The notes below the pieces were generated by a model that saw only the letters and a program-made list of their open reading frames with translations, made no database searches and was not told the DNA's origin. Positions 30,534 through 31,781 of a DNA stretch of 64,000 nt are shown here, piece after piece. This DNA comes from Candidatus Iainarchaeum sp. Its GTDB lineage: Archaea > Iainarchaeota > Iainarchaeia > Iainarchaeales > JAXPJC01. Within the stretch, counting starts at the first letter, position 1. Each line of letters opens with the position of its first letter. The position numbers were made by a program, and so were the translations under genes. Where the stretch lies: assembly GCA_016187745.1 (NCBI GenBank), contig JACPJC010000005.1, forward strand, positions 96,001 to 160,000, read 5' to 3'.

Positions 30534-31781
30534 CTACCTATATCTCAATATTGCTCCGAGCCCGCCGAAGGTTTTGTAGAACTGCTCCCCTTCCGCGGTT
30601 TCTGTTGAAATTAATTTCATTTCCGCATCAATCTTGTGCACCTTTTCCAGCAGCCAGTCTGCATAATCCACTTCCTCCATTATTTCAGCCTCGGCATTGC
30701 ATTTTGTGCATTTTGGGATTCCCCCCAAACCGAAGCGGTTTTTCACAAGGATTTCCTCGTTATTATTGCAGTGCCCGCAGAGCAGCCTGTAAACAACCCA
30801 GTCTATCGCCTCAGAAACCAGAAGGGTTTTTACCTTTCCCTCAGCAAGCGCAGTTTCCACTTCCTTCTGCCCGTAGGTCGCAAGCGCGCCCTTCACAACC
30901 TCCTGAAGGAAACTGTTAACAGCAAGCCTTTCCTTCATTACCTCTGTGCTTTTCAGTATTTCCTCGCTTTTCTGGAACAATTCCCTTATTCCGGACTCAT
31001 CAGTGTAGGAAGTGTCAAGTGTTCCTAGCACCATCCCCTTAAGCCTGTAATCAAGCAGGTCCTGCTCAAGAAAATAATTTTTTGTGGCGCCAGGCCCCCC
31101 GATAATTATGCCCTTCATTTTATTCCCGTATACAAGATAGATTGCGCCCATTTTTTCCGCAATGCGCTTGAAGAAGTCGTGCGTTGCCTCTTCCCTCAAT
31201 CTCTCATACCTGTGCGCCGAAAATCCCCCTGCCTTTACCTTTCCCGGAACCGCGGAAGTTATTCTTCCCAGAACCTCGTATTTCTTGCCCACAAGCGCAG
31301 CAAATGTCGCCTCCCTCTTGTCAAGGGTTGCCAATCCATAAATCTCCGAGGGCGCAGCCATTTCCTCAAGCGGATCCAGATGGAACTGCGAATCGCACCA
31401 GTACAATTTTACTTTCAGCCTCCTCAGCGGCCTTACAGTAAAGAGGGTTATGTCGCTCCTTCCCTCCTGCTCGGAAATATTCCCGCAAAAAACTACCAAC
31501 CCCCTCTCAGGCAGCTGGAAATTTATCCTTTTGAGGAAATTTGATATTTTCCTGAGCGCGCCCTGCACATTCTTGCGCGTTGTGGGGCTCTTTATGTTGG
31601 AGCTCTGCGAAGTTTCCTCGGTAAGCTGCCCCATAACCAGGCTTCTGTCAACATCCGGGGGCAAATAAAGTGAAATCAGCTCAGTCCCCTTTCCCTTGAA
31701 GGCCTTGAGCATCTTTAGTTTTTTCTTGAATACTGCTGCTTCAGCCTCGTCAATCTTCTCCAGTTCCTTCATGTTCATCAT
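30534..31781 (-). CDS. prf1: Peptide chain release factor aRF1 (GGQ replaced by GGF)
   Basis: GTELISLY, NIKS, YWCDSQF, AGGFSAHRY, GGPG, YTDESG, FGGLGAILRY. Confidence 0.95.
   Translation of the reverse strand: MMNMKELEKIDEAEAAVFKKKLKMLKAFKGKGTELISLYLPPDVDRSLVMGQLTEETSQSSNIKSPTTRKNVQGALRKISNFLKRINFQLPERGLVVFCGNISEQEGRSDITLFTVRPLRRLKVKLYWCDSQFHLDPLEEMAAPSEIYGLATLDKREATFAALVGKKYEVLGRITSAVPGKVKAGGFSAHRYERLREEATHDFFKRIAEKMGAIYLVYGNKMKGIIIGGPGATKNYFLEQDLLDYRLKGMVLGTLDTSYTDESGIRELFQKSEEILKSTEVMKERLAVNSFLQEVVKGALATYGQKEVETALAEGKVKTLLVSEAIDWVVYRLLCGHCNNNEEILVKNRFGLGGIPKCTKCNAEAEIMEEVDYADWLLEKVHKIDAEMKLISTETAEGEQFYKTFGGLGAILRYR

Follow-up and report, generated by a model that had tools for sequence, protein, structure and literature searches.

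The window analysed here is a stretch of 64,000 nucleotides from the genome of a Candidatus Iainarchaeum species (contig JACPJC010000005.1, positions 96,001 to 160,000), and its element of interest is the gene for archaeal release factor 1 (aRF1), in which the Gly-Gly-Gln (GGQ) catalytic loop reads Gly-Gly-Phe (GGF). The gene and its motifs are laid out as follows:

30534..31781, minus strand: aRF1 gene, 415 amino acids plus stop; 455.3 bits against TIGR03676; eRF1_1, eRF1_2 and eRF1_3 all present
31221..31229, minus strand: codons 185-187, GGG GGA TTT = Gly-Gly-Phe, at the position of the GGQ catalytic loop (aligned to PDB 4af1_A)
31383..31403, minus strand: YxCxxxF motif, here YWCDSQF, amino acids 127-133; intact, its Y, C and F invariant in an alignment of aRF1s without Gln
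31587..31598, minus strand: NIKS stop-codon recognition motif, amino acids 62-65; intact, its N, I and K invariant in the same alignment

The plus strand at 31221-31229 is AAATCCCCC, which gives GGG GGA TTT on the coding strand and places GGF at residues 185-187, within the segment VPGKVKAGGFSAHRYER of the protein. In an alignment to the solved aRF1 4af1_A, Phe187 stands opposite the Q of kggqsaqrf; the Gly-Gly pair typical of the aRF1/eRF1 family (eRF1, eukaryotic release factor 1) is retained and the glutamine is replaced by phenylalanine. The initial annotation, made from the sequence alone, had these codons right in all details, as it did the full-length gene with intact NIKS and YxCxxxF motifs and the three substitutions that separate CAR from TTT. 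The protein scores 455.3 bits against the NCBIfam equivalog model TIGR03676, well beyond the cut-off of 234.7, and all three Pfam domains exceed their cut-offs (eRF1_1 51.1, eRF1_2 125.3, eRF1_3 76.7 bits), domain 1 carrying both motifs of stop-codon recognition. Orthology is indicated by a single above-cut-off match in the genome together with the placement of the protein among related aRF1s. The model of Pelota/Dom34 (TIGR00111) reaches 61.3 bits against a cut-off of 177.65 and spans only amino acids 166-414, and the N-terminal domain is eRF1_1 with NIKS rather than the Sm-like domain of pelota. The domains of baeRF family 10 and acVLRF1 (PF18854 and PF18859) score 38.4 and 29.2 bits, below the 125.3 bits of eRF1_2 on the same residues, while the acVLRF1 model NF041024 yields 21.2 bits against a cut-off of 125. 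By these profile comparisons the protein classes as an aRF1 orthologue with a variant catalytic loop and not as a textbook member of the family.

The GGF reading is not a sequencing error. A cluster at 90% identity comprises 13 sequences drawn from NCBI, ENA, JGI and Logan assemblies, and between its full-length members as many as 22 of 410 positions vary, yet GGF is found in 11 of the 11 members that cover the loop. A protein 98% identical is encoded on the metagenome contigs L059 and L060, which do not differ from each other in this gene; it departs from that of the window by 100 synonymous and 8 non-synonymous codons, and the NG86 estimates of the non-synonymous and synonymous substitution rates, dN and dS, are 0.0156 and 0.519. 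A dN/dS ratio of about 0.03 speaks for a real gene under strong purifying selection. Both contigs keep GGG GGA TTT, with the adjoining Ser codon shifted synonymously from TCG to TCA. That a single-base error could not explain GGF, as had been argued from the codon alone, is borne out by the concordance of the 11 cluster members with L059 and L060. Read support, which had been singled out as the first thing to verify, is available at the level of contigs rather than raw reads: in a possible source run, the gene lies in a depth-96 contig with no alternative letter at the codon. Two runs from other studies (X5 and X6) contain relatives about 90% identical; none of the differences listed falls at 31221-31229, and the nearest ones in that list (31218, 31236, 31239) affect third codon positions, a weak indication given that 195 further differences lie beyond the list. 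No RNA run bearing the gene was listed. Residue 98, at a position where 10 of 10 aligned aRF1s have Phe, is also encoded by TTT, so nothing hints at a recoding of this codon.

The genome of the window (G000) comprises 963,943 bases on 10 contigs (completeness 91.15%, contamination 1.79%), and it is within this assembly that the following absences hold. A profile search returned one match to the aRF1 model above cut-off; two weaker matches fall in one frame of 362 amino acids that is typical of pelota, and no bacterial-type release factor domain was found. A second aRF1 bearing GGQ, raised by the initial annotation as a possible canonical copy elsewhere in the genome, was likewise not found. 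The same applies to the methyltransferase pair that it had named, both members remaining under cut-off: the best match to the archaeal HemK2/Mtq2 model TIGR00537 has 37.2 bits (cut-off 87) and Trm112 has 16 bits (cut-off 22), and the loop itself offers no Gln for N5-methylation. Pth2, which cleaves peptidyl-tRNA, is present with 139 bits and also occurs in four out of four archaeal control genomes. The suggestion that this copy might be a repurposed rescue factor finds no support in the sequence data: the protein is the sole aRF1 found, has kept both stop-reading motifs, evolves at a dN/dS of about 0.03 and is accompanied by a separate pelota-like gene.

The replacement is not confined to the window. 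A DNA pattern (G-K-x-x-A-G-G-X-S-x-x-R-[FY]) was run over 196 species genomes of the order Iainarchaeales (Diapherotrites) and matched an unsplit motif in 138, with a Gln codon, CAR, in 135 of them. The exceptions are the genome of the window (TTT), G109 from another family (TTC), and G036 from a third family (TGG); one extra match in G019, on another contig, is chance-like. From a search of 5.8 billion proteins, the query and its best 120 matches were examined for the loop residue, which is Q in 105, F in five, and W in four; the remaining seven fall outside the search expression, four being intein-split GGQ|C sequences, one reading GGQSAQRL, and two carrying deletions. A maximum-likelihood tree of 114 of these proteins—seven rows were left out for length or for want of a motif call—requires three residue changes and contains three separate clades without Gln, nested among Q sequences. 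The GGF clade of the window is sister to the GGQ protein P0004 with a support of 99, the second GGF clade has three members and the GGW clade four. Each of these clades has a support of 98-99 in the Shimodaira–Hasegawa-like approximate likelihood ratio test (SH-aLRT), internal branches of 0.1-0.35 and a stem no longer than those of its neighbours. By this tree, the variants without Gln have been maintained and have diversified, with no sign of relaxed constraint.

A wider search of 1.84 billion cluster representatives returned 464 proteins at E values up to 1e-30, and among the best 150 of these the residue is Q in 113, W in 12, M in five, F in three, and S in one, with 16 uncalled. In a FastTree phylogeny of 132 rows, from which 29 short or uncalled rows were left out and in which inteins were excised only approximately, the N part being fused to the final 228 residues, 14 changes at the residue are required, ten of them forced by well-supported branches of Q groups. 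Across ten aligned aRF1s without Gln, the two glycines, Ser at +1 and Arg at +4 are invariant, likewise N-I-K and Y.C...F. Relatives of the GGW protein P0147 occur in two species genomes, each of which has a GGW loop and one aRF1 above cut-off, and the record of one is labelled Aenigmatarchaeota. From this second DPANN phylum (that of G196), 201 genomes were sampled, and the pattern P-x-K-x-x-x-G-G-X-S-x-x-R-[FY] matched in 156 of them. The residue counts for this phylum come from a hand count of 150 of the 159 matching rows, two of which are chance-like; they give 147 callable genomes, with Q in 66, W in 56, M in 21, Y in two, F in one, and A in one, the Tyr variants using TAT and TAC. Among the same 150 rows, two matches occur only in G204, G273, and G300, the extra one in G300, itself without Gln, being chance-like, and no genome without Gln has a second, Gln-type match. 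Hence, where the initial annotation had treated the replacement as a one-off, the order tree, the wider search and the second phylum agree in presenting it as recurrent, having arisen many times in small-genome DPANN archaea. The finding is stronger than had been thought: GGF is one case of a recurrent, selected replacement that is linked with the absence of Mtq2, its function being deduced.

The distribution of Mtq2 largely follows that of the glutamine. Mtq2 exceeds its cut-off in 163 of the 196 genomes of the order, and no match at E values up to 1e-15 was found in the genome of the window, in G036, or in G005, a sister genus of G036 whose aRF1 is cut by a contig end. The GGF genome G109 has a TIGR00537 match of 92.9 bits, but in a protein of 362 amino acids (L075:1201-2289) that carries an NPPF motif and is extended at both termini. 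This protein is 32% identical over 130 residues to an ordinary Mtq2 of 195 amino acids and scores 123 bits against the 162-bit cut-off of its closest equivalog model, features that mark it as a HemK-family paralogue. In the second phylum, Mtq2 lies above cut-off in 74 of 201 genomes; by residue, these are 55 of the 66 Gln genomes versus one of the 81 genomes without Gln. The single positive among the latter, G228 (L076), reaches 87.5 bits in a 384-amino-acid frame of the long-paralogue kind, and four further genomes without Gln have sub-threshold matches of 74-85 bits. As judged by these profile scores, loss of the glutamine and absence of Mtq2 are distributed together in three lineages of the order and in the second phylum.

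A further feature of the same site is an intein directly after residue 187 (GGQ|C...), which splits aRF1 between residues 187 and 188 in nine of 40 relatives (G002, G008, G023, G024, G031, G032, G033, G035, and G040; loci such as L064:3001-3711 and L066:3001-3525) within frames of 571-928 amino acids. Inteins are also present in many of the best 150 representatives, and some intein-bearing alleles have a residue other than Gln in front of the intein (GGW|C, GGM|C, GGF|C, GGS|C).

The ribosomal partner of the loop is itself unusual in these organisms. In the genome of the window, the relevant feature is:

C4:27111-29959 (L054:1501-2250): 23S rRNA, 3′ part

Set against the Rfam archaeal consensus, all eight Iainarchaeales 23S rRNAs compared, from eight families (L051-L058), are deviant at several near-universal positions in the second shell of the peptidyl transferase centre, by approximate mapping ~2448, 2452, 2453, 2499, 2500, 2503, and 2504. 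The sequences are taken as genuine because the changes in helix 93 are compensatory. In the 49 of 196 order genomes that match the corresponding pattern, the '2452' base is C in 33 and T in 16, both states occurring with GGQ, and the other derived positions are common to Q, F, and W genomes of the order. As a candidate rRNA partner for the aromatic residue the '2452' base was rejected, for it does not go with F or W. The 23S pattern built on the order gave four chance-like matches in the 201 genomes of the second phylum, for which nine rRNAs from 12 genomes were available, too few for covariation; these also deviate at 2503/2504. The lineages named in a preprint on divergent active sites of archaea are Thermoprotei and Methanomethylicia, and its text mentions neither DPANN, nor the release factor, nor GGQ (10.1101/2024.11.12.623245), and, to the extent of our reading, divergence comparable to that of Iainarchaeales has been published only for those two groups. 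Several side observations concern the same rRNAs. Seven of the nine second-phylum sequences (L081, L082, L084-L087, and L089) have ACGAAAGGA in the sarcin-ricin loop, where ACGAGAGGA is usual. Several 23S genes of that phylum are 3.2-4.4 kb long, which suggests insertions. Two of its GGW genomes have C at '2504' where M, Y, and Q ones keep U. In the order, the 23S rRNA of G001 (L056, G001:C3:49940-53013) carries an A/T-rich insertion of ~75 bases in domain V that is absent from the seven other aligned genomes.

Canonical archaeal aRF1s (4af1_A, 3agk/3vmf) have the same three domains, length, NIKS, YxCxxxF, Gly-Gly, Ser+1, and Arg+4; they differ from the protein of the window at residue 187, where its Phe is not N5-methylatable, and its 91%-complete genome yielded no Mtq2. 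In Haloferax volcanii the methylated Gln bears the same residue number, 187; it is modified by Mtq2, deletion of which doubles the generation time, that is, halves the growth rate (PMC6144793). The same paper calls GGQ universally conserved and places Mtq2 in all archaea or all archaeal phyla. Eukaryotic eRF1 (PDB 1dt9 and ribosome complexes) is homologous over its whole length (E 1.7e-59), with the same motifs and tRNA-mimic architecture. According to the literature it always has GGQ ('universally conserved', PMC6144793, PMC5799190), in contrast to the GGF described here. The eRF1(AAQ) protein is an engineered dead factor, whereas GGF is a natural variant and belongs to the only factor found in its genome. 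Bacterial RF1 and RF2 possess an analogous GGQ loop, methylated by PrmC, on a fold unrelated to aRF1. We know of no natural RF1 or RF2 without the glutamine. Many Gln substitutions in bacterial RF1, on the other hand, reportedly keep substantial hydrolysis in vitro and lose selectivity for water (Shaw and Green, 2007). Pelota/Dom34 and baeRF/VLRF1 belong to the superfamily of aRF1, and some of them lack the catalytic Gln, as stated in the consulted part of PMC6514570; they have no stop-codon reading domain, and those without Gln have degenerate loops, in contrast to the strictly conserved loop found here. The same part of that superfamily review discusses members without Gln only among pelota and bacterial relatives. 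Full-text searches directed at such a factor, or at GGQ or Mtq2 in DPANN archaea, turned up no description of an aRF1 without Gln; their scope stops short of subscription journals and supplements, where an earlier mention may exist.

Taken together, we hold it to be reasonably probable that the window encodes a working aRF1 in which a bulky hydrophobic residue has taken over the packing role of methyl-glutamine, so that Mtq2 is no longer needed. In this scheme, the sole aRF1 would read stop codons via the usual NIKS and YxCxxxF motifs, and its Gly-Gly loop would enter the peptidyl transferase centre as usual. In bacterial factors the water is held by a main-chain NH, a side-chain carbonyl and the 2′-OH of A76, and the side chain of the (methyl-)Gln packs in the peptidyl transferase centre with its orientation fixed by methylation (consulted part of PMC5799190). 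By analogy with bacterial and eukaryotic factors, the hydrolytic water in the variant would be placed by the main-chain NH of residue 187 and by the 2′-OH of A76 in the P site. Side chain 187, normally an N5-methylated Gln packed in a pocket, would here be Phe and in other lineages Trp, Met, or Tyr. Across the ten aRF1s without Gln, the invariance of Gly-Gly and of the flanking Ser and Arg points to a loop of ordinary geometry in which the side chain alone differs. Since the replacements are nearly all W, M, F, or Y, the side chain may still have a job in the pocket; natural replacements are almost all large and hydrophobic, and the shape of Met resembles that of methyl-Gln. From this conservation we infer retained hydrolytic activity and a packing role for the aromatic ring. 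An encoded hydrophobic side chain would require no methylation, and Mtq2 could be lost along with the glutamine, an outcome that fits gene-shedding organisms. The order of events may have been loss of Mtq2 first and replacement of Gln afterwards, with which GGQ genomes devoid of Mtq2 are compatible, and the Tyr variants may plausibly represent an intermediate if CAR turned into TTY by way of His, Tyr, and Phe. The initial annotation had envisaged termination without methylation and with altered chemistry. Its first half fits the data, because no GGQ aRF1, Mtq2, or Trm112 was found and the Gln is gone; its second half is not borne out by the invariant GG and S..R.

Several points weigh against this account. 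The activity of the Phe, Trp, and Met variants is deduced only from their conservation, and most substitutions of the eRF1 glutamine are said to be harmful in vivo (Frolova, 1999; Song, 2000, in yeast). Four near-complete GGQ genomes of the order are devoid of Mtq2 (G001, 99% complete, G053, G054, and G083), as are 11 of the 66 Q genomes of the second phylum, and kinship among genomes means that the contrast of 55/66 with 1/81 overstates the support. G109 keeps its HemK-like gene just above the TIGR00537 cut-off at 92.9 bits. At 68% completeness for G036 and 72% for G109, gene absences are not proven there, nor, at 91%, is the absence of a second GGQ aRF1 or of Mtq2 from the genome of the window. 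The residue counts of the second phylum carry the caveat of a hand count of 150 of 159 rows.

Of the competing explanations, one would have the factor read stop codons while being dead in hydrolysis, ABCE1 splitting the ribosome and Pth2 then cleaving the released peptidyl-tRNA, in the manner of pelota-type rescue. The presence of Pth2, the textbook status of Gln as essential, and the use of eRF1(AAQ)-type loop mutants as hydrolysis-dead factors in solved complexes (going by the names of the molecules) all lend it some colour, but the loop is missing altogether from hydrolysis-dead relatives such as pelota, whereas all ten aligned aRF1s without Gln retain GG, S+1, and R+4; the replacements are non-random, nearly all being W, M, F, or Y, and Pth2 does not discriminate, being present in all four archaeal controls. 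We regard it as unlikely. Far less probable still is an origin of the codon change in the intein at this site, whether as immunity to the homing endonuclease or as a scar left by inexact loss of the intein. Many relatives do have an intein exactly after residue 187; however, inteins stand behind W, M, F, and S, so that replacement of the Gln does not keep the intein out and immunity is rejected, and a scar would neither give W, M, or F repeatedly nor explain the loss of Mtq2. Hardly any credence is due to an artefact or redundant copy, that is, a sequencing or assembly error, a recoded TTT, or a relaxed duplicate alongside a GGQ aRF1 in the unassembled 9%. The completeness of 91.15% and the contig-level nature of the support leave it a little room. 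Against it, independent assemblies are concordant, dN/dS is about 0.03, TTT gives an invariant Phe elsewhere in the same gene, other lineages have TTC, TGG, ATG, or TAY at the site, and a second, Q-type match occurs in none of the 81 genomes without Gln in the second phylum.

The last alternative places the cause in the ribosome: a derived peptidyl transferase centre would reshape the pocket such that Gln is not required or is not the best fit, with loss of Mtq2 being secondary. The derived second-shell positions in eight of eight Iainarchaeales 23S rRNAs, with their compensatory helix 93, and the deviant 2503/2504 of the second phylum speak in its favour. Yet the derived centre is common to Q, F, and W genomes of the order, and no tested rRNA position tracks the residue, '2452' C and T both occurring with GGQ. 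As the prime cause the ribosome thus seems improbable; the derived centre may be a permissive background. A more general proposition combines this background with a working factor that has swapped its packing side chain: the glutamine would be dispensable in nature, at least ten independent exchanges having put W, M, F, or Y in its place in the sole aRF1 of large parts of at least two DPANN phyla, each time with loss of Mtq2 and on derived peptidyl transferase centres. To this we would assent by a slight preference.

The interest of such factors lies in the standing of the motif they alter. GGQ is cited among the few motifs conserved in all three domains of life and methylation of its Gln as a universal modification; here, if the account is true, the gene itself would supply a hydrophobic side chain where the active site of the ribosome otherwise receives one methylated after translation. 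Natural factors with W, M, F, or Y would make the roles of the Gln side chain and of its methyl group testable with respect to catalysis, packing, and the exclusion of nucleophiles other than water. They also bear on the extent to which the translation core drifts in reduced genomes. In the annotation of DPANN genomes, a 'missing GGQ' is no ground for calling a gene a pseudogene or its product a rescue factor.

Some minor observations concern individual aRF1 sequences. P0003, a cluster neighbour of the protein of the window (372 amino acids, one sequence), is devoid of 40 amino acids including the loop, between two similar short repeats, a deletion that is probably an assembly artefact. The database aRF1 P0078 (393 amino acids) also lacks a stretch around the catalytic loop. 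P0274 (417 amino acids), one of the uncalled representatives in the wider search, reads GGE and bears the NCBI label of a bacterial genome record, probably through assembly contamination. Finally, the aRF1 match of G017 (L027, G017:C33:5053-6282) has one in-frame TGA.

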